DNA of 64,000 nt from assembly GCA_009692945.1 (NCBI GenBank), contig SHYD01000001.1, positions 11,898 through 75,897 on the forward strand. The letters are read 5' to 3'. Shown in pieces: positions 3,856 through 57,062 of the stretch. The notes below the pieces were generated by a model, which did no database searches, was not told the origin of the DNA, and saw only the letters and a program-made list of their open reading frames with translations. A program made the position numbers and the translations under genes. This DNA comes from Dehalococcoidia bacterium (lineage in GTDB: Bacteria > Chloroflexota > Dehalococcoidia > SHYD01). How positions within the stretch are numbered: the stretch's first letter is position 1; each line of letters begins with the position of its first letter.

Positions 3856-4204
3856 GCAGTGTCAGGGGTTCGGGGGTATGAGCCACTCCCCCCACCCCAG
3901 GAAAAAAGAGGAGAATTCTCTGCTGGGGGCACCCCATAGGAGTGGGCAGATTTCTGGTCAGACAACCTCGGCGGCTGTACTTCCCACCCACCCACCCATT
4001 TTGTTTGTGTGTGGGGACACCCCGCACCCCGGCAGAAGGGGCTGCGCCCCCTCTGCACACCCCCCGTCCTGGAACCCCCATCCAGGCATGAATTCAAAAG
4101 ATGCCCACTCCTATGGGGGCACCCCCACGCCCCCGGCAGAGGGCTGTCGCCCTCGTGCACTCCCACTTCTGAGCCCGGCCGCCCTCAACAGTGAACTCTT
4201 ACGG
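3856..4204. repeat. Mosaic GC-rich palindromic intergenic repeat, copy A
   Basis: Shares modules with 9 other copies: CCCCCGAACCCCTGACACTG end, GAGAATTCTC box, CCCATAGGAGTGGGCA box, (CCCA)4 tract, GTGTGGGGACACCCCGCACCCCGGCAGAAGGGGC hairpin module, GGCAGAGGGCTGTCGCCCTCGTGCACTCCCACTTCTGAGCCCGG module, and terminal CCCTCAACAGTGAACTCTTACGG. Confidence 0.8.
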
Positions 4205-9269: not shown

Positions 9270-10334
9270 CTATCGGCGGGTCGTCCTCGGGTTGAACGCA
9301 TCGTTCAGCCCGTCTCCCATCAACGCGAAGCAGAAGAAGACGACGGACGCGATGGTGATGGGCATCAGGAACACGGGAGCCACCCGGCAGGCGAACTGGT
9401 CGACCAGCAACGACTGGCTCTGGTTCTCCCAGATCATGACGCCGAGACTGGGGGTTGGGGGTTGGATACCCACCCCCAACCAACTGAGCACCAACTCGGA
9501 GCCGATGGCGCCGCCCAGGGAACCTGACAGGATGATGATGACGATGTTGAGCGTGTTCGGAATAATGTGCTGTACAACGATGCGCGAGGTGCGGGCGCCC
9601 AGCGCCCGGGCCGCCGTCACGTAGTCCATCTCCCGCTGCACCAACACCTGGCCTCTAATCAGCCGTGCCACGCCCACCCAACTGAACACCGACATCGCGC
9701 CGAACACCACCACGTAGTCCACCAAGCCCGATTCCACCAGCCCAGAAATGCTCGGCATGCTCTGGGCCCACGCCAGCACCCGCGGCCTGATGGTGGCGCT
9801 GATGAGGATGACCAAGAGCAGGCCGGGGAACGCGAGGAACACCTCGCCCACCCGCATGACGATCGTGTCCAAGCGGCCCCGCAGGTAGCCGGTCAGGACC
9901 CCCAACGTCACGCCAAGCAGGATGCTGCCGGTGATGATCGTGGCAATCGAGACGATCACCGAGGTCCGCATGCCCCACAGAATGCGGCTGAAAAGGTCAC
10001 GGCCCAACCGGTCGGTGCCAAGCAGGTGTTCCGGAGAAGGGGCGATCTTGGGAGGGGCCTTGCTCTCCTCGAACATCGCAGTGACCGCACAGAACGGCTG
10101 GGTCAGCCAGCCCGGCTGGAACGAGTTGTCGAGGTTCTGCTCACGAAAACCATAAGGGGCGAACATCGGGCCGATTGCCCCACCCACGTAGAACAGCAGG
10201 ATGACGAGCAGCGACCCCATCGCCAGTTTCTTGGTGCGAAACCGTTCCCAACCCAGCGCCCAAAGGCTCTTGCTCTTGGTGCTGCGGCCGTGCGCCTGAT
10301 CGGAAAGAGCGGCAATGCCGCTGGAGGTGGCCAC
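9270..10334 (-). CDS. ABC transporter permease, DppC/OppC family
   Basis: BPD_transp_1 membrane protein with EAA-like loop (..AARALGARTSRIVVQHIIPN..). 354 aa, N-terminal extension typical of OppC/DppC. Confidence 0.85.
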   Translation of the reverse strand: MATSSGIAALSDQAHGRSTKSKSLWALGWERFRTKKLAMGSLLVILLFYVGGAIGPMFAPYGFREQNLDNSFQPGWLTQPFCAVTAMFEESKAPPKIAPSPEHLLGTDRLGRDLFSRILWGMRTSVIVSIATIITGSILLGVTLGVLTGYLRGRLDTIVMRVGEVFLAFPGLLLVILISATIRPRVLAWAQSMPSISGLVESGLVDYVVVFGAMSVFSWVGVARLIRGQVLVQREMDYVTAARALGARTSRIVVQHIIPNTLNIVIIILSGSLGGAIGSELVLSWLGVGIQPPTPSLGVMIWENQSQSLLVDQFACRVAPVFLMPITIASVVFFCFALMGDGLNDAFNPRTTRR

Positions 10335-23584: not shown

Positions 23585-23615
23585 GTTTGACACCCAATTC
23601 CGGCCCGTGGTAAGC
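23585..23615 (+). promoter_or_regulatory. Possible promoter for the ilv leader (TTGACA-N19-TAAGCT)
   Basis: cgtttgacacccaattccggcccgtggtaagct. The spacer is 19 nt, which is longer than optimal. Confidence 0.3.
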
Positions 23616-23651
23616 TATCGGTACCAAAATTGGTGCGGAGTGGTGCTTCGG

Positions 23652-23753
23652 ATGCCTGCACGAGCCGAAAACGGCGGAACCAACACCAGGGCACCGGTCC
23701 TGCGCAACGTGGTTGCCACCGTTGGCGCGCTCCTTATTGTCGTAGTAGTTTAG
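23652..23753 (+). CDS. ilv leader peptide (33 aa) ending in a run of branched-chain residues
   Basis: ATG..TAG encodes MPARAENGGTNTRAPVLRNVVATVGALLIVVVV. The last 7 codons are Leu/Ile/Val and the peptide has 10 BCAA overall. It is followed by hairpins and an intrinsic terminator upstream of ilvD. Confidence 0.65.
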   Translation: MPARAENGGTNTRAPVLRNVVATVGALLIVVVV

Positions 23754-23848
23754 CCGGCCCGTGAGGCCGGCCTGAGGGCGGATGAGCCTGAGTCCGGCGG
23801 TAGGCGCAACAGCGCCAGCGCTCCACCTGTAACCAAGTGAACAACACC

Positions 23849-23879
23849 GGCTCCCGCCTCAGGCGGGAGTTTTGTTTTG
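23849..23879 (+). terminator. Attenuator terminator upstream of ilvD
   Basis: ggctcccgcc-tcag-gcgggag followed by TTTTGTTTTG. An upstream hairpin gccggcccgtgaggccggc (23754-23772) overlaps the leader stop codon. Confidence 0.65.
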
Positions 23880-23954
23880 ATACGGAACCGCCGGGTGCGG
23901 CCCAAGCCCGCCGGAACCGTTGCCCGGACATAGGGACACGAGGAGGCTAACACT

Positions 23955-25616
23955 ATGGCGTTACCCAGCGACGCGATCAAACTGGGCATCGAACGGGCGC
24001 CCAATCGATCGATGCTCTATGCCGTCGGCTTCACCCAGGAAGACTTTAGCAAGCCATGGATCGGCGTGGCCAGTTGTTGGAGCGAGGGGACTCCCTGCAA
24101 CTTCAACAACCACCGGCTGGCGGGCGATGTCAAGGCCGGGATCGCTGCCTCCGGCGGGCTGGGCAAGGAGTTCAACACCATCTCGGTCACCGACGGCATC
24201 GCCATGGGGACCGAGGGCATGAAGGCTTCGCTCCCCAGCCGGGAGATCATCGCCGATTCCATCGAACTCTACATCCGAGGCCATAGTTATGACGGCCTGG
24301 TCGCCATCGGCGGGTGCGACAAGACCAACCCGGGTGGATTGATGGCCTTGGCGCGGCTGAATGTCCCGGGAATCTTTGTCTATGGCGGGAGCATCATGCC
24401 GGGGCGGTTCCGGGGGAAGGATGTCACCATCCAGGATATCTTCGAGGCCGTCGGCGCCCATGCCGCAGGGAAGATAACGGCGGAGGATGTCTACGAATTG
24501 GAACGGGTGGCCTGCCCCGGCGAGGGCGCGTGCGGCGGGATGTTCACCGCCAACACGATGTCCAGCGCCAGCGAAGCCCTGGGAATGGCACTGCCCTTCA
24601 GCGCCTCTATCCCCGCCATCGACCAGGCTCGGGAGGAGTTGTGCCGGGCAACGGGCGCGGCGGTGATGGACCTGATCCAGCGCAACATCCGTCCTCGGGA
24701 CATCCTCACCCGCGACGCCTTCTTCAACACCATCGCCGTGGTGGAGGCGCTGGGCGGCTCCACCAACGCGGTGTTGCACCTATTGGCCCTGGCCAAAGAG
24801 GCGGGCGTCAGTCTGACGATAGATGATTTCGACCGGATCAGCGCCAAGGTCCCACACATTGGCGACCTCAAGCCGTCCGGCCGTTACGTGATGTACGACC
24901 TGCATGTGGCGGGCGGCGTACCCATGGTGATGAAGGCGCTGCTGGACGCTGGGCTCCTGAACGGCGACTGCCTGACGGTGACCGGCAAAACCGTACGCGA
25001 AAACCTGGCAGCAATCGAGTGGAACGCACAGCAGGACGTGGTCCGCCCGCTTGCCGACCCACTGGCGCCGGGGGGCACCATGGTCATCCTCCGGGGTAAC
25101 CTATCGCCGGAAGGCTGCGTTATGAAGATCGGAGGCCTGAAAAACACGACCCTCACCGGACCGGCCAGGGTGTTCGACGACGAGGAAGCAGCGATGAAGG
25201 CGGTCACGGAGCGCCGCATCGTAGCGGGTGATGTGGTGATCATTCGCTACGAGGGGCCGAAGGGCGGACCAGGCATGAGGGAGATGCTGGCGGTCACCTC
25301 GGCGCTCTCGGGCCAGGGGTTGGGCGGCGAGGTGGCACTCATCACCGACGGCCGGTTCTCAGGCGCCACCCACGGCATGATGATCGCCCACGTCGCCCCC
25401 GAGGCCGCGGTGGGCGGCCCCATCGCTGCGGTGCAGGACGGCGACCGCGTCACGGTGGACGCGGCAAACCGCCGCATTCACCTTGATGTCTCGGAGGCCG
25501 AGATCGCCCAAAGGCTGTCCCGGTGGACGCCTCCCGCCCCCCGCTACACCTGGGGGGCGCTGGCGAAATATGCTAAGTTGGTGAGTTCGGCGGCCGAAGG
25601 GGCCGTCTGCGGATGA
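23955..25616 (+). CDS. ilvD: Dihydroxy-acid dehydratase
   Basis: ..[17 protein letters not shown]..; ..[11 protein letters not shown]..; ILVD/EDD family. 553 aa. Confidence 0.95.
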
Positions 25617-25662: not shown

Positions 25663-27378
25663 ATGAAGCGAACAGGAGCCCAGATCGTCTTCGAGTGTTT
25701 GCTCCGCGAGGGAGTACGGCACATTTTTGGGTACCCCGGGGGGGCCAACCTCCCGCTGTACGACACCTTTAAGGACTATCCCCAGATCCAGCATATTCTG
25801 GTGCGCCACGAACAGAGCGCCGCCCATGCCGCCGACGCCTACGCCCGGGTCACCGGCGACGCAGGAGTCTGCTTTGCCACCTCCGGGCCCGGCGCAACCA
25901 ACCTGGTGACCGGTATCGCCACCGCCTGGATGGACTCAGTCCCGATCGTGTGCGTCACCGGAGCGGTGGTCACCTCACTGATCGGACGCGACGGCTTCCA
26001 GGAAGCCGACATCACCGGCATCACGCTGCCTGTTACCAAGCACAATTATCTGGTGACCGACGTTCACGACATCGCCCGGGTGATGAAGGAGGCGTTCCAC
26101 ATCGCCCGGACCGGCCGCCCAGGTCCGGTGCTGGTCGATATTCCTCGAGACACCCAACAGATGACGGCCGACTTCCACTACCCCGAGACGGTGCACCTTC
26201 GGGGTTACCGCGTGCCCGGACATCCCGATCCGGCTGAGGTCAAGCGGGCGGCAAAGTTGATTGAGGAAGCCGAACGTCCGCTGATCCTCGCGGGGCATGG
26301 GGTCATTCTCTCGAAAGCGTACGACGAGTTGCTGGAACTCGCCGAGAAGTGCGACATCCCGGTGATCACCACCTTGCTGGGCATCAGCGGCTTCCCCGGC
26401 ACCCACCCGTTGTTCCAGGGGATGCCCGGCATGCACGGCATGTACTGGAACAATATGGCCATCAGCGAGTCCGACCTGCTGCTCGGCCTGGGGATGCGGT
26501 TCGACGACCGCGTTACCGGGCGCTTGAAGGACTTCGCACCCAATGCCAAGATCGTGCACGCCGACGTTGACCCGGCCGAGATGGGGAAAAACGTCCGGCC
26601 CACCGTGGCCTTGCTCGGCGATTTGAAGGCGACGCTGCAAGACCTCAACCGGGAGGTTGGCGGCAAGCGCCACCCGGACTGGAAGGCATGGCTGGCGCGG
26701 ACCCGGGCCGAACACCCCTCCATTACCATACCGGAAACCGACAAACTGCTGCCCCAATTCGTCCTGAAGCAACTCTACGAGGCCACCAAAGGCCAGGCGT
26801 ACGTCGTGACGGGTGTCGGACAACATCAGATGTGGGCTGCTCAGTACTATTGGTACGACCGGCCCAACTCCTTCGTCACCTCGGGGGGGTTGGGGACCAT
26901 GGGGTTCGAGGTTCCGGCGGCGCTGGGAGTCCAGGTCGCCCGGCCCAAGGATGTGGTGTGGTCGGTGGCGGGCGACGGCGGCTTCCAGATGACCATGCAG
27001 GAACTGGCCACGCTGGTGGAATACGAACTCCCGGTGAAATTCGCCCTGCTGAACAACGGCTATCTCGGCATGGTCAAACAGTGGCAGCAGCTCTTTTACA
27101 ACGACAACCGTTCCGCCGTCAAGATGTTCAACCCCGACTTCGTGAAACTGGCCGAGGCATTCGGAATGGTGGGGCTGCGGGTTACCGATAAGACCCAGGT
27201 GGCGCCGGCAATCGAGCAGGCGATGCGGCATCCCGGTCCGGTGCTGGTAGAGTTCGTGGTGGACGAAGACGAGAATTGCTATCCGATGGTCCCGCCGGGA
27301 GCGGCGCTCCAGGAGACCATCGATCAGCCGGCGATGGCGCCCGCCCGGCGGCGGGAGGAAGCGGTGAGCCGTTCATGA
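25663..27378 (+). CDS. ilvB: Acetolactate synthase large subunit
   Basis: MKRTGAQIVFECLLREGVRHIFGYPGG.. TPP enzyme. 571 aa. Confidence 0.93.
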   Translation: MKRTGAQIVFECLLREGVRHIFGYPGGANLPLYDTFKDYPQIQHILVRHEQSAAHAADAYARVTGDAGVCFATSGPGATNLVTGIATAWMDSVPIVCVTGAVVTSLIGRDGFQEADITGITLPVTKHNYLVTDVHDIARVMKEAFHIARTGRPGPVLVDIPRDTQQMTADFHYPETVHLRGYRVPGHPDPAEVKRAAKLIEEAERPLILAGHGVILSKAYDELLELAEKCDIPVITTLLGISGFPGTHPLFQGMPGMHGMYWNNMAISESDLLLGLGMRFDDRVTGRLKDFAPNAKIVHADVDPAEMGKNVRPTVALLGDLKATLQDLNREVGGKRHPDWKAWLARTRAEHPSITIPETDKLLPQFVLKQLYEATKGQAYVVTGVGQHQMWAAQYYWYDRPNSFVTSGGLGTMGFEVPAALGVQVARPKDVVWSVAGDGGFQMTMQELATLVEYELPVKFALLNNGYLGMVKQWQQLFYNDNRSAVKMFNPDFVKLAEAFGMVGLRVTDKTQVAPAIEQAMRHPGPVLVEFVVDEDENCYPMVPPGAALQETIDQPAMAPARRREEAVSRS

Positions 27379-27935
27379 GCAAGGAACTGCATACGATCGT
27401 CGCGTTGGTGGAAGACCGTCCGGGTGTGCTCAACCGTATCGTCAGCCGCTGGCGGCAGCGTGGCTTCAACATCGAGAGCCTCGCCGTCGGGCACTCCGAG
27501 ACTCCCGGGTTGTCCCGCATGACCTTCGTGGTGGACGCCGCCCACAACGATGTGGAGCAGGTGGTGAAGCAGGTGGATAAGCTGGTGGATATTGTCCACA
27601 TCGAGGACATCACCCACTTGGCCACCGTCAGCCGGGAACTGATCATGATCAAAGTGCGGTCAAACCCGGCGAACCGCAGCGCCATCCTTCAGATCGTGGA
27701 CATCTTCCGGGCCAACATCGTCGATGTGAGCACCGAGTCGCTCATCGTGGAGGCCACGGGCGACGAACAGAAGCTCGACTCGCTGGTGGAATTGCTGGAG
27801 GAGTTCGGCGTCATCGAACTGTGCCGCACTGGGCGGGTGGCGATGCAGCGGGGAGCAGAACGCGTCGGCCAGGACGAACCTCACCTGGTGCTGCCCCATC
27901 TCCACGGGGGACGGGCTCCGGGAGGGCTTTTCTAA
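27375..27935 (+). CDS. ilvN: Acetolactate synthase small (regulatory) subunit
   Basis: MSKELHTIVALVEDRPGVLNRIVSRWRQRGFNIESLAVG.. ACT domain. ATGA overlap with ilvB. Confidence 0.9.
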   Translation: MSKELHTIVALVEDRPGVLNRIVSRWRQRGFNIESLAVGHSETPGLSRMTFVVDAAHNDVEQVVKQVDKLVDIVHIEDITHLATVSRELIMIKVRSNPANRSAILQIVDIFRANIVDVSTESLIVEATGDEQKLDSLVELLEEFGVIELCRTGRVAMQRGAERVGQDEPHLVLPHLHGGRAPGGLF

Positions 27936-27974
27936 GCGACCCTCGGCCAGCCGTTGGGAGACCGAGCTATACTA

Positions 27975-28262
27975 GAGTCCCCGTGCAAGAGTTTAGACTC
28001 GGGATTCGGGCACGGGGGTGCAGGGGGCAAAGCCCTCCTGCCGGGGGACTGGGCATAGGAGTGGGCCCCTTTTTACTTCATGCCTGGATGAGGGCTTTGG
28101 GACGGGGGTGTACAGAGGGGGCGAAGCCCCTTCTGCCGGGGTGTGGGGTGTGCCCACACACAAACAAAGTGGGTGGGTGGGGGGTACAGCCTTGGAGGTT
28201 GTCCGAGGGGGAACACCCCCACTCCTCTGGGGACTGGGGGTGTTCCCCCAGAAACGGTCGAG
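27975..28262. repeat. Intergenic repeat, copy C
   Basis: Contains CATAGGAGTGGGC box, ..AGAGGGGGCGAAGCCCCTTCTGCCGGGGTGTGGGGTGTGCCCACACAC module (inverted orientation), GTGGGTGGGTGGGGGG tract, GGGGGAACACCCCCACTCC, GAAACGGTCGAGGAG. Confidence 0.75.
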
Positions 28263-28407
28263 GAGGCGCTCCGCGAACTTCAGGTGGTCTATGGCATGAT
28301 CTTGGAGGAGTTCGCTGAGGAGGGCAGAGCGTTACGGCCCCATACTACCGTGACGGCCGGCGCCCGCGAGCAATTCACTCAGTTTCGATAACCGGAAAGG
28401 AAGCAGC

Positions 28408-29409
28408 ATGGCAACAATTTTCTACGATCCAGATGCAGACGTAGCGCTGCTCCGGGATAAGCTCGTGGCTATCATCGGCTACGGCAGCCAGGGGCACGCC
28501 CACGCGCTCAATCTGAAGGACAGCGGCCTCAACGTCGTCGTCGGGTTGCATGAGGGTAGCCAAAGTGCCGGACGCGCCCGGGAAGCGGGCCTGCAGGTGG
28601 TATCGGTGGACCAGGCAGGCGCCGACGCCGACATCATCATGATGCTGGTCCCCGACCAGACGGCCAAACAGGTCTACGATCAATCGCTGGTCAAGCACAT
28701 GAAGCCCGGCAAGACGCTGATGTGGGCTCATGGCTTCAACGTGCACTTCAACCAGGTGGTGGCGCCGAAAGACATCGACGTGACCATGATCGCCCCCAAA
28801 GCGCCCGGCCACATGGTCCGCCAGGTGTTCACCGAAGGCTCGGGAACACCATGCCTGGTGGCCATTCATCAGGATGCCAGCGGCCGCGCCCGTGACATGG
28901 CGCTGGCCTACGCCAAGGGCATCGGGGGGACCAGGGCAGGCGTGCTCCTGACCACCTTCAAAGAGGAGACCGAGACCGACTTGTTCGGCGAGCAGGTCGT
29001 GCTGTGCGGCGGCATCTCGGCCCTGATGGAAGCCGCCTACGAAATCCTGGTTGAAGCGGGGTATCAGCCGGAGTCAGCCTACTTCGAATGCCTGCACGAG
29101 ATGAAGCTCATCGTCGATCTCATGTACTCGGGCGGCCTCGGCTACATGCGGTACTCCGTCAGCGACACCGCTGAATACGGCGATTACACCCGCGGTCCGC
29201 GCATCGTCAACGATGGGGTCAAGGCAGAGATGAAGAAGATCCTTCACGAAATCCAATCGGGCTCCTTCGCTCGAGAGTGGGTGCTGGAGAACCAAGCCAA
29301 CCGTGCCGGGTTCCTCTCGATGCGCCGGCAGCACGCCGAGCATCCCATCGAGCAGGTGGGGCGGGAGTTGCGGGCGATGATGCCGTGGCTCCCCAAGCCA
29401 CGGGAGTAG
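28408..29409 (+). CDS. ilvC: Ketol-acid reductoisomerase
   Basis: [40 protein letters not shown].. class I KARI. 333 aa. Confidence 0.95.
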
Positions 29410-29411
29410 GT

Positions 29412-29535
29412 ACCACGACCAGGGCTGAGGGATGAAAGACCTCGGGGGCAGGCGTGCAGAGGGCGGCAGCCCTTTGCCGGGGGGGTTGGGGTGTCCCCAA
29501 GAACCAATTCCTTTTCTTTTTTCTGGGAGTGGCGC
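29412..29535. repeat. Intergenic repeat, copy D (short)
   Basis: GCAGAGGGCGGCAGCCCTTTGCCGGGGGGGTTGGGGTGTCCCC and CCTTTTCTTTTTTCTGGGAGTGG box; compare copies F and J. Confidence 0.7.
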
Positions 29536-29746: not shown

Positions 29747-31282
29747 ATGGACCGGATAGTTATCTTAGACACCACCATGCGCGATGGGGAGCAGGCTCCG
29801 GGCGCCACCATGAACCTGGAGGACAAGGTCCAGATCGGGCGTCAATTGGAACGCCTTGGGATCGATGTCATCGAAGCGGGCTTCCCCGCCAATTCTCCGC
29901 AGGAGGTCGAGGCGGTGGCCGCCGTGGCCAAGGAGATCAAGCGCTCCAAGGTGGCCGGCCTCACCCGGCCTGTTCTCAGTGACATCGATGCCTGCTGGGA
30001 GGCGGTGCACCACGCCGAGAACCCACGCATCCACGTGTTCATCTCGACCTCCGACCTCCACCTGGAGCGGATGCTGCGCAAGACGCGGGAAGAAGTCCTC
30101 GAAATGTCGGTGAAGGGCGTCGCCCACGCCAAGAAGTACACCGACGACGTCGAGTTCTCGCCCATGGACGCCACCCGCACCGACCCCGTCTATCTGTATC
30201 AACTGTTAACCGCAGTGATCGATGCAGGCGCGACGACCATCAACATCGCCGACACCGTCGGCTACGCCATCCCGGACGAGTTCGCACGCTTCCTCACGGG
30301 CATCCGAGAAAACGTGCCCAACGTCGACAAGGCCGTGATGAGCGTCCACTGTCACAACGACCTCGGATTGGCCGTCGCCAACAGCCTCGCCGCCATCAAG
30401 GCAGGCGCGCGGCAGATCGAGGTGTGCGTCAACGGACTGGGGGAACGGGCGGGGAACGCCTCGCTGGAAGAGGTGGTCATGGCCATCTCGACCCGGCGGG
30501 ACCTGTTGGGCGCCTACCACGGCCTGGACACCACCCAGATCTACCGCACCAGCCGGATGGTGTCGGACGTCACGGGAATGCTCATCCAAGCCAACAAGGC
30601 CATCGTGGGAGCGAACGCGTTCCGTCACGAGTCCGGCATCCATCAGGACGGCGTCATCAAGGAACGCACCACCTACGAGATCATGGACCCCAAGTCAATC
30701 GGCCTCACCAGTTCGGTGCTGCACATTGGCAAGACCAGCGGCCGGGCCGGCTTCCGGTCCCATCTTAAGGACATGGGGTACGACATGACCGACCAAGACT
30801 TCTCCAAGGCATGGGAGTCCTTCAGGGAGGTCGTCAGCAAGAAGAAGTACATCACCGATCGGGATATCGAGGCCATCGTGGCCGAAGAGTTGCGGTCGGT
30901 CGATGAGACCTACCGGTTGGACGAGGTCCACGTCACCTGTGGCGAACCGGGCATCCCTACCGCATCGGTGAAGATCGTCGATTCTGAGGGACGCGAGTTC
31001 ATCGAGTCGGCAGTGGGCAACGGCCCGGTGGATGCCGTCTACAACGCCATCAGCAAAGTGATACCGGTGAGCAATACCCTGGAGGAATTCACGATCAAGT
31101 CGATCACAGACAGCACCGAATCCCTCGGCGAAGTGACGATCCGGATCGAAAGCAATGGACAGACCTTCACCGGCCGGGGCGCCAGCACCGATATCATCGT
31201 GGCCAGCGCCAGGGCGTACCTGAACGCCATCAACCGGCTCGTGTCGATGCAGGGACTGGACAGCAAGGGCCCCGTCAAGTAG
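29747..31282 (+). CDS. leuA: 2-isopropylmalate synthase
   Basis: MDRIVILDTTMRDGEQAPGATM.. HMGL-like barrel, ..HCHNDLGLAVANS.., C-terminal LeuA dimerisation domain. 511 aa. Confidence 0.93.
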   Translation: MDRIVILDTTMRDGEQAPGATMNLEDKVQIGRQLERLGIDVIEAGFPANSPQEVEAVAAVAKEIKRSKVAGLTRPVLSDIDACWEAVHHAENPRIHVFISTSDLHLERMLRKTREEVLEMSVKGVAHAKKYTDDVEFSPMDATRTDPVYLYQLLTAVIDAGATTINIADTVGYAIPDEFARFLTGIRENVPNVDKAVMSVHCHNDLGLAVANSLAAIKAGARQIEVCVNGLGERAGNASLEEVVMAISTRRDLLGAYHGLDTTQIYRTSRMVSDVTGMLIQANKAIVGANAFRHESGIHQDGVIKERTTYEIMDPKSIGLTSSVLHIGKTSGRAGFRSHLKDMGYDMTDQDFSKAWESFREVVSKKKYITDRDIEAIVAEELRSVDETYRLDEVHVTCGEPGIPTASVKIVDSEGREFIESAVGNGPVDAVYNAISKVIPVSNTLEEFTIKSITDSTESLGEVTIRIESNGQTFTGRGASTDIIVASARAYLNAINRLVSMQGLDSKGPVK

Positions 31283-31287
31283 CGGGT

Positions 31288-31515
31288 GAACGGCGCCGGC
31301 CGGGGCGGCAGCCCGCTGCCGGGGGAGTGGGGGTGGCCCCATAGGAGTGGGAACCTTTTCAGTGTGTGCCTGGGCGAGCTGTTCGAACACGGGGAGTGCA
31401 GAGGGGGCGAAGCCCCTGCTGCCGGGGTGTGGGGTGTCCCCACACACAAACGGCATGGGTGGGTGGGTGGGTGGGTGGGAGTGGCCCATACCCCCGAACC
31501 CCTGACACTGAATAG
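31288..31515. repeat. Intergenic repeat, copy E
   Basis: CGGGGCGGCAGCCCGCTGCCGGGGGAGTGGGGGTGGCCCCATAGGAGTGGG; GAGGGGGCGAAGCCCCTGCTGCCGGGGTGTGGGGTGTCCCCACACAC; (GGGT)5GGG; CCCCCGAACCCCTGACACTGAAT end. Confidence 0.8.
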
Positions 31516-56809: not shown

Positions 56810-57062
56810 CGGGCCGACCCAAGCTCGGGAGTGGGAGTGCACGAGGGCGGCGGCCCTCTGCCGGGGGAGTGGGGGTGCCCCCATAGGAGTGGGCACCTTT
56901 TGAATTCGTGCTGGATGTGGATTCCAGGACGGGGGGGGGTATGCAGAGGGGGCGCAGCCCCTTCTGCCGGGGCGTGGGGTGTCCCCCACAAAGAATTCTC
57001 CTCTTTTTCTGGGGTGGGGGCGTGGCTCACACCGCCTGATCCCCTAACACTGAATCGATACA
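56800..57062. repeat. Intergenic repeat, copy J
   Basis: CTCGGGAGTGGGAGTGCACGAGGGCGGCGGCCCTCTGCCGGGGGAGTGGGGGTGCCCCCATAGGAGTGGGCACC; G9 run; GCAGAGGGGGCGCAGCCCCTTCTGCCGGGGCGTGGGGTGTCCCCCACAAAGAATTCTCCTCTTTTTCTGGGGTGGGGGCGTGGCTCACACCGCCTGATCCCCTAACACTGAATCG. Confidence 0.85.

Follow-up and report, generated by a model that had tools for sequence, protein, structure and literature searches.

A predicted leader-peptide attenuator responsive to leucine, isoleucine, and valine 5' of ilvD in uncultured Chloroflexota

The stretch of DNA considered here, 64,000 nt of contig SHYD01000001.1 from an uncultured Chloroflexota bacterium (64% G+C), carries the branched-chain amino acid gene ilvD, and the question raised by this locus is what the interval 5' of ilvD contains and whether it controls the gene. 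The whole of this stretch is referred to below as the window. A sequence-only reading had proposed leader-peptide attenuation upstream of ilvD, and this proposal is supported by the presence of an antiterminator and by the conservation, in related loci, of a run of leucine, isoleucine, and valine (Leu/Ile/Val) codons in a small open reading frame (ORF). The element is probably, with a likelihood of about 0.8, a Leu/Ile/Val-responsive transcription attenuator of the ribosome-mediated (leader-peptide) kind. As such it would make the expression of ilvD depend on how fully the Leu, Ile, and Val tRNAs are charged, and probably that of ilvBN as well.

The 5' part of the element reads from the sequence as follows:

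23587–23616 (+): putative sigma-70-type promoter, with −35 TTGACA at 23587–23592, an 18-nt spacer, and extended −10 TGgTAAGCT at 23608–23616
23637–23640 (+): Shine-Dalgarno-like GGAG, 11 nt before the leader ATG (weak evidence)
23652–23753 (+): leader ORF, with ATG at 23652, 33 sense codons encoding MPARAENGGTNTRAPVLRNVVATVGALLIVVVV, and a TAG stop at 23751–23753
23730–23750 (+): regulatory run CTC CTT ATT GTC GTA GTA GTT, in which seven of seven codons are Leu/Ile/Val

The 33-codon ORF ending in seven consecutive Leu/Ile/Val codons (LLIVVVV) had been described in the sequence-only reading, and it is indeed there. A Leu/Ile/Val run of six or more is found in only two of the 353 ATG-initiated ORFs of 10–60 codons in the window. 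The other small ORF with a Leu/Val run, at 10201–10299, lies inside a long ORF and was dismissed as chance. Five of the seven codons of the leader run are rare in the large genes of the window (CTT 3%, ATT 12%, GTA 5%, GTT 8%), with GTA the rarest of the Val codons, which fits a sensor tuned to tRNA charging.

Comparison with other loci provides most of the evidence for this element. Ten further non-identical leaders were found on uncultured Chloroflexota metagenome contigs, all of them directly upstream of ilvD genes whose products are 74–94% identical to the IlvD of the window, so that 11 loci are compared below. These came from the contigs of IlvD relatives in a protein database, from one species-representative genome, and from three metagenome contigs identified by a DNA pattern; the metagenome scan with this pattern yielded those three loci only, and eight of the ten further leaders were located through IlvD homology alone. 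In total, 97 loci were fetched. Among 80 ilvD loci from the species-representative genome collection, which were searched for upstream small ORFs with Leu/Ile/Val runs, this leader is present only in locus L001, and the other such ORFs in those 80 loci are chance-like. In the closest species-representative genome, IlvD is 76% identical to that of the window.

An ATG-started frame with a run of 5–8 Leu/Ile/Val codons is present in all 11 loci, and the frame is 29–33 codons long in ten of them and 12 codons long in L082. The run is closed by an invariant GTA GTA NNN TAG in every case, and one further codon stands between the run and the TAG in every locus but the window, as seen in the peptide endings of the relatives (SLLLVVVG, ALLLLVVA, GLLLLIIVVR, GLLLVVG, RVLLLVVVT, QLVLILVVR, PVLLLVVP, and GLIIVVR). 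The codons of the run differ by lineage (CTC, CTT, CTG, CTA, ATT, ATC, GTC, GTG, GTA), yet they always encode Leu, Ile, or Val, and such in-class variation with a 3-nt periodicity indicates selection on the encoded amino acids. The N-terminal parts of the peptides are unrelated among the 11 loci. It had been suggested that the small ORF be sought in relatives, and what is kept there is the codon run, the position of the stop, and the ATG-started frame, but not the rest. Annotators should label the 33-codon ORF a leader peptide and not a hypothetical protein.

In the window the extended −10 lies about 35 nt before the leader ATG, and transcription would start about 30 nt upstream of the leader ORF; the promoter site is missing from the output of a stricter promoter scan. 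The strict pattern TTGAC[A/T/G]-N16-19-TAnnnT is matched in 9 of the 11 homologous loci, 12–46 nt before the leader ATG, and there is a variant in L001 and L086, where TTGACA is combined with ATACT. The short leader peptide of L082, at 2300–2371 of that locus (the same as in L085), has 12 residues, MTAIWGLLLVVG. The ATG follows the end of the predicted −10 hexamer by 12 nt, so that the ORF may be translated from a leaderless mRNA or from one whose 5' untranslated region is very short.

The 3' part of the element contains the following, of which H2 is a proposed structure:

23753–23771 (+): hairpin H1, with arm A GCCGGCC at 23753–23759, loop CGTGA, and arm B GGCCGGC at 23765–23771 (7 bp)
23766–23798 (+): hairpin H2, the proposed anti-antiterminator, in which GCCGG of arm B (23766–23770) pairs with CCGGC, element E (23794–23798)
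23776–23788 (+): strand C, the 5' strand of the antiterminator, G-GGCGG-au-GAGCC, pairing with 23849–23858 (duplex of −18.1 kcal/mol in the window)
23849–23879 (+): intrinsic terminator T, with arm D GGCTCCCGCC at 23849–23858, loop TCA, 3' arm D' GGCGGGAGTT at 23862–23871, and T-run TTTTGTTTT to 23879

The terminator of the window has 10 pairs, 7 of them G-C, in the consensus scan, and its tail folds at −18.3 kcal/mol. It is the single site found by the terminator scan on this strand between 22500 and 25000. Its stem begins 96 nt after the leader stop and its T-run ends 76 nt before the ilvD ATG, so that the strong intrinsic terminator of the sequence-only reading is present; the loop given there as tcag has to be amended, since the better stem has the 3-nt loop TCA. 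A terminator with a T-run is found in all 11 loci, at −12.9 to −21.2 kcal/mol and 110–137 nt after the stop.

A mutually exclusive antiterminator, which the sequence-only reading had named as the thing to look for, is predicted in all 11 leaders and co-varies with the terminator. Strand C is 9–12 nt long, starts 3–5 nt after H1, and is complementary to arm D in every locus, at −13 to −22 kcal/mol. The C, D, and D' strands are of three types: GGGACGGAG / CUCCGUCCC / GGGRCGGAG in most loci, GGCGGauGAGCC / GGCUCCCGCC / GGCGGGAGUU in the window and L087, and CGAGUuGCCUG / CAGGCACUCG / GGCGAGUG in L083. Both C and D' change whenever D changes, and in a swap test the cognate C–D pairs were generally more stable than the cross-type pairs. 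In a structural alignment of the 11 loci, pairing amounts to 84% in the antiterminator helix and 92.5% in the terminator helix, and both partners have changed in 6 pairs of the former and 4 of the latter. The observed covariation score was reached by none of 500 shuffles, and sliding the partner by 1–3 columns reduced pairing to 27–50%. This alignment was built by hand, padded with N, and checked against the real sequences, and MAFFT kept every column of it; it replaced a plain MAFFT alignment of the leaders, in which the C, D, and D' strands were out of register. The RNAalifold consensus consists of H1 plus the terminator. The parts of the leader, their conservation, and the covariation of antiterminator and terminator are what the sequences show.

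The claim that the leader stop is embedded in a hairpin also holds, as the first base of H1 is the G of the TAG. H1 overlaps or abuts the stop in all 11 loci; folded alone, that of the window has −14.4 kcal/mol. Its pattern occurs once in the window and, among the 97 loci, only in those that bear the leader, and its stem is invariant except for one C-to-U change that gives a U-G pair. Downstream of arm B, at about 25 nt, there is a conserved CCGGC or CGGCC, which is element E. H2 is the minimum-energy fold of the segment from arm B to element E in all 11 loci (−13.8 to −19.6 kcal/mol, z-scores −1.2 to −2.7). In the window it encloses an inner stem, GGGC/GCCU, that buries part of strand C, and in the other loci the sequence of the inner stem is lineage-specific, yet part of strand C is always buried.

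Neither the window nor 10 of the homologous leader loci have a match to an Rfam family at the gathering score, and there are only chance-level matches at E-values up to 10; the leader therefore belongs to none of the described leader families. The sequence-only reading had reported that a T-box is absent, and this is confirmed, in that RF00230 has no match in the window even at E-values up to 10. A match to Pseudomon-groES (15.8 bits against a gathering score of 50) was rejected as chance. A match to the Chloroflexi-1 RNA (RF01698) in L001, at 2610–2664, is probably chance too (20.4 bits against a gathering score of 80, E-value 0.066); it covers the unstructured flanks only, with 41 central model positions skipped, and its location is the spacer that separates the H2 region from the terminator.

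How these parts might act together is a separate matter from their presence. It can be inferred that the ORF is translated, that H2 has a role, and in which order the events take place, and the specific logic of four hairpins set out here is given about an even chance of being correct. The four would be successive and mutually exclusive: H1 (A:B), H2 (B and C with E), the antiterminator (C:D), and the terminator (D:D'). When Leu, Ile, or Val is scarce, a ribosome with a hungry codon in its A site would stall 5 to about 20 nt upstream of H1. The intact H1 would keep arm B, H2 would be blocked, and C would pair with D as D emerged; the terminator would be pre-empted, and RNA polymerase would read into ilvD. 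When these amino acids are plentiful, the ribosome would reach the TAG, where it would cover all of arm A, and H1 would melt. Arm B would be freed about 11 nt beyond the A site, and H2 would form before D had been made, at least 50 nt further on. With C buried in H2, D would pair with D' and transcription would end at about 23879. Downstream structures do persist at such distances from the A site, as is the case for frameshift-stimulating structures.

This four-hairpin logic would explain why the regulatory codons are before, and not inside, the first hairpin, why the stop overlaps or abuts H1 in every locus, and why there is exactly one codon other than Leu/Ile/Val between the last Val codon and the stop, where such a codon is present. 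Wherever it is present, the last Leu/Ile/Val codon is 5 nt from H1. The frozen sequence of H1 would be accounted for as well, because arm B must match two partners.

Two sets of folds bear on this logic in the 11 loci. The first was of the full leader at equilibrium, with a ribosome mask at each codon, and the second was of transcripts ending just before D', with either H1 intact or arm A masked. In the second set, with H1 intact, the probability of the antiterminator is 0.8–1.0 in all 11 loci and 0.99 in the window. If the first unmasked base is set 6–15 nt beyond where the stop codon begins, the mask covers arm A and leaves arm B available, and H2 appears in the folds. The probability of the antiterminator then falls below 0.5 at one or more positions of the ribosome edge in 9 of the 11 loci. 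The strongest falls are those in the window (0.16–0.43), L087 (0.10–0.57), and L083 (0.01–0.08); in L084, L081, L082, L088, and L092 a single position gives a value under 0.5, and in L086 and L089 there is hardly any fall. Noisy long-range pairings were obtained when the 5' part was folded as a whole.

Several observations weigh against an attenuator of this design, or against one of its parts. In the full-leader equilibrium folds, the terminator wins at every ribosome position in 10 of the 11 loci, the exception being L001. Dominance of the terminator at equilibrium is usual for attenuators; it does mean that the switch has to be kinetic, with the order of folding being what matters, and masked full-leader folding at equilibrium was set aside as a test uninformative for such a switch. 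The covariation comes from only two or three independent change events, in about 8 lineages, and is measured on an alignment that was hand-fitted to the structure. H1 is invariant and so offers no covariation, and its strict conservation could mean something besides pairing. The z-scores of H2 are modest and are biased by segment ends chosen to minimize energy. With arm A masked, little energy separates H2 from the antiterminator, and in L086 and L089 it is the antiterminator that is still preferred. The Shine-Dalgarno-like purine stretches before the leader ATG are weak across the loci, with variable spacing. In addition, an untranslated leader would, under the four-hairpin logic, read through, unlike the trp leader, and no conserved upstream partner of arm A that could prevent this was found in the 11 loci. 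In most loci the best candidates for such a fifth element did not do better than shuffled sequences, and they are not found at a fixed position.

Some of these points would suit a leader-peptide attenuator with ordinary three-element logic, in which H1 is a pause or synchronizing hairpin comparable to 1:2 of the trp leader, H2 is incidental, and the outcome is set solely by how closely the ribosome follows RNA polymerase and so interferes with the antiterminator. The invariant H1 is placed where a pause hairpin would be expected, and the model for the Corynebacterium glutamicum ilvBNC leader gives a pausing role to its first hairpin (PMC11857589). The modest z-scores of H2, and the persistence of the antiterminator in L086 and L089 with arm A masked, are in keeping with this too. 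The distances, on the other hand, are not. A ribosome at the TAG reaches about 23763–23766, which is at least 10 nt short of strand C at 23776–23788, and could not block it directly, so that an intermediary such as H2 would be needed for termination in times of plenty. H2 is moreover found in all 11 loci with lineage-specific inner stems that bury part of C in each, and element E is conserved without any other obvious role. The three-element logic is unlikely.

Less probable still is an attenuator controlled by a protein or ligand, with an untranslated ORF, in which an RNA-binding regulator or a riboswitch-like fold would be centred on the invariant H1. H1 is conserved not only in its pairing but also in its sequence, most of the loop included, as would be expected of such a site, and the weak Shine-Dalgarno signals of the leader would fit an ORF that is not translated. 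It would not account for the 7–8 codons before the stop, which vary and yet stay Leu/Ile/Val and share a reading frame with an ATG upstream and a conserved TAG. There is also no conserved sequence or structure upstream of the run, and no match to any Rfam riboswitch or protein-binding leader. That the ORF is a chance one or encodes a functional small hydrophobic peptide, with the terminator ending a short transcript or insulating ilvD from upstream transcription, is hardly credible: the hydrophobic C-terminus could be a membrane anchor, and annotation commonly misses small proteins, but only the Leu/Ile/Val run is conserved, the L082 peptide has just 12 residues, the conserved co-varying antiterminator would be left without a role, and the location before the Leu/Ile/Val pathway in 11 loci would be a coincidence.

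The sensing of tRNA charging is not without precedent at this position, since relatives have a T-box before the same operon. These relatives are more distant, with IlvD proteins of 66–67% identity, and their leaders are as follows:

L096, 1226–1453: T-box leader (RF00230, 127 bits), apparent specifier GUC (Val)
L095, 1042–1336: T-box leader (RF00230, 123 bits), apparent specifier GUC (Val)
L094, about 1100–1480: T-box sequence below the Rfam gathering score, apparent specifier CUC (Leu)

The terminator of the L096 T-box (about 1440–1470), CTCCGTCCC-TTTATGT-GGGCGG-T6, and that of the L001 leader (2663–2691), CTCCGTCCC-ATGT-GGGGCGG-T7, are near-identical. In the T-box antiterminator the conserved 3' strand is likewise CGUCCC, and the terminator arm CUCCGUCCC is equal to this strand; the antiterminator strand GGGACGGAG resembles the 5' strand of the T-box (GGG-UGGCACC-GCGGA in L096) minus the tRNA-binding bulge. 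The match is short, but it hints that one sensor replaced the other on a shared terminator. A T-box was considered as the ancestral state, but 15 more distant Chloroflexota ilvD loci have no T-box at the gathering score, so that the replacement may have run in either direction. The spacers of the leaders were inspected for T-box remnants, and only a vague UAGGGU in L082 was seen, which is unconvincing.

Taken jointly, these features could be read as a new Chloroflexota family of attenuators in which an even-numbered, four-hairpin "ruler" was combined with a sensor swap on the expression platform of an ancestral T-box, a tentative reading that is on balance doubtful. In such a ruler the spacing of GTA GTA NNN TAG would set the last hungry codon just far enough away for a stalled ribosome to spare H1, while two codons further on, at the stop, the ribosome would have to swallow the whole 5' arm of H1.

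The predicted first regulated gene with its ribosome-binding site, and the genes that follow it, are these:

23940–23946 (+): ilvD ribosome-binding site, GAGGAGG
23955–25616 (+): ilvD, dihydroxy-acid dehydratase (NCBIfam, 846.8 bits), the predicted first regulated gene
25663–27378 (+): ilvB
about 27375–27935 (+): ilvN
28408–29409 (+): ilvC
29747–31282 (+): leuA

The neighbouring gene upstream, which encodes a peptidase C26/glutamine amidotransferase, is transcribed divergently, and the interval of about 400 nt between it and ilvD is therefore a true promoter-leader region. Since ilvB comes 46 nt after ilvD and is overlapped by ilvN, co-regulation of the three is very likely. Control by the leader may or may not extend to ilvC and leuA, which come after longer gaps, 472 nt between ilvN and ilvC (27936–28407) and 337 nt between ilvC and leuA; both contain copies of a G-rich palindromic repeat, and in neither did a simple scan identify a plus-strand terminator. 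The ilvN-ilvC gap is unusually long and holds only low-complexity G-rich ORFs and repeat copies, with no plus-strand promoter in a simple scan.

The repeat, GGGGCGAAGCCCCTTCTGCCGGGG with variants, is G+C-rich, palindromic, and dispersed in the window, with copies at 4027–4050 (−), 28118–28141 (+), 31404–31427 (+), and 56949–56972 (+), and looser copies at about 28014–28050 and 29445–29500. These are four matches at no more than one mismatch, where none would be expected by chance, and all of the copies that were placed against genes are intergenic, so that the repeat looks like a repetitive extragenic palindromic sequence or a miniature inverted-repeat transposable element. In some relatives it is the gap between ilvD and ilvB that is long, at 300–480 nt as against the 46 nt of the window (L088 3163–3549, L089 3166–3611, L092 3166–3469, L096 3163–3646), and no Rfam family matches within these four gaps. 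A thiamine pyrophosphate riboswitch (70 bits) is present near ilvD in an unrelated Dehalococcoidia contig (L027, 1807–1922, minus strand), which is irrelevant to the attenuator.

Searches of the literature on Chloroflexi found T-boxes described and did not find a leader-peptide attenuator. The leader would thus appear to be an unreported member of a well-known class of regulators, with a predicted wiring that is unusual. For an uncultured Chloroflexota lineage it offers an annotation, open to testing, of how the branched-chain amino acid genes may be regulated, and it defines a conserved family of an RNA with a small ORF that current RNA libraries miss. If the four-hairpin logic is true, stalling is wired to a terminator by a ribosome that protects a hairpin rather than melting it.

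The enteric ilvGMEDA and ilvBN leaders of Escherichia coli and Salmonella, to which the sequence-only reading had likened this architecture, are analogous to it and not homologous. They share with it a short ORF with a multivalent Leu/Ile/Val run and a terminator before the first biosynthetic gene, and in both the antiterminator shares a strand with the terminator, the position of the ribosome selecting the fold, as is predicted here. There is no sequence or Rfam-level homology between them, and the first gene here is ilvD. The regulatory codons of the enteric ilv leaders form part of the first hairpin, within its 5' arm, whereas those of the present leader are just upstream of H1 and only the stop overlaps it. 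The predicted competing hairpins are four here, not the three of the classic arrangement, and a stalled ribosome would spare H1 rather than melt it.

A larger number of hairpins is known from the his operon leader of Salmonella and E. coli, which has a multi-hairpin chain of A:B, B:C, C:D, D:E, and E:F. There, too, more than three mutually exclusive hairpins relay the position of the ribosome to a distant terminator. The his leader differs in that its number of hairpins is odd and the ribosome stalls on the first arm, while the number proposed here is even, with the stall before the first arm.

Leader-peptide attenuators upstream of operons that begin with ilvD are known from Staphylococcus aureus (PMC5794164) and, as Rli60, from Listeria monocytogenes (PMC5864092). 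Like the present leader, these stand at the head of an ilv-leu operon, encode a leader peptide rich in Leu and Ile, and include a terminator for which there is an alternative fold (PMC5794164, PMC5864092), and the attenuator of S. aureus is situated where related bacteria use a T-box (PMC5794164). They belong to another phylum and have other sequences, and those operons are also under CodY control. In the S. aureus model, moreover, the antiterminator sequesters the poly-U tail and not the 5' arm of the terminator (PMC5794164).

The ilvBNC leader of C. glutamicum, for which CUU and GUA have been proposed as control codons (PMC11857589), resembles the present one in having an anti-antiterminator layer, a Leu/Ile/Val leader peptide, and the same rare codons (PMC11857589; ilvB-II motif, PMC10272879). 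It has three hairpins, the first of which overlaps the leader ORF, the regulated gene is ilvB, and there is no sequence similarity.

The T-boxes (RF00230) of related Chloroflexota have the same position and the same operon as the present leader, with a terminator-antiterminator output that reports tRNA charging. A T-box senses uncharged tRNA directly, by way of Stem I and the T-box bulge, and the window has neither of these, with a predicted sensor of the translated type instead. Two mechanisms at one spot, among loci whose IlvD proteins are 66–94% identical, make this a natural case for studies of sensor replacement.

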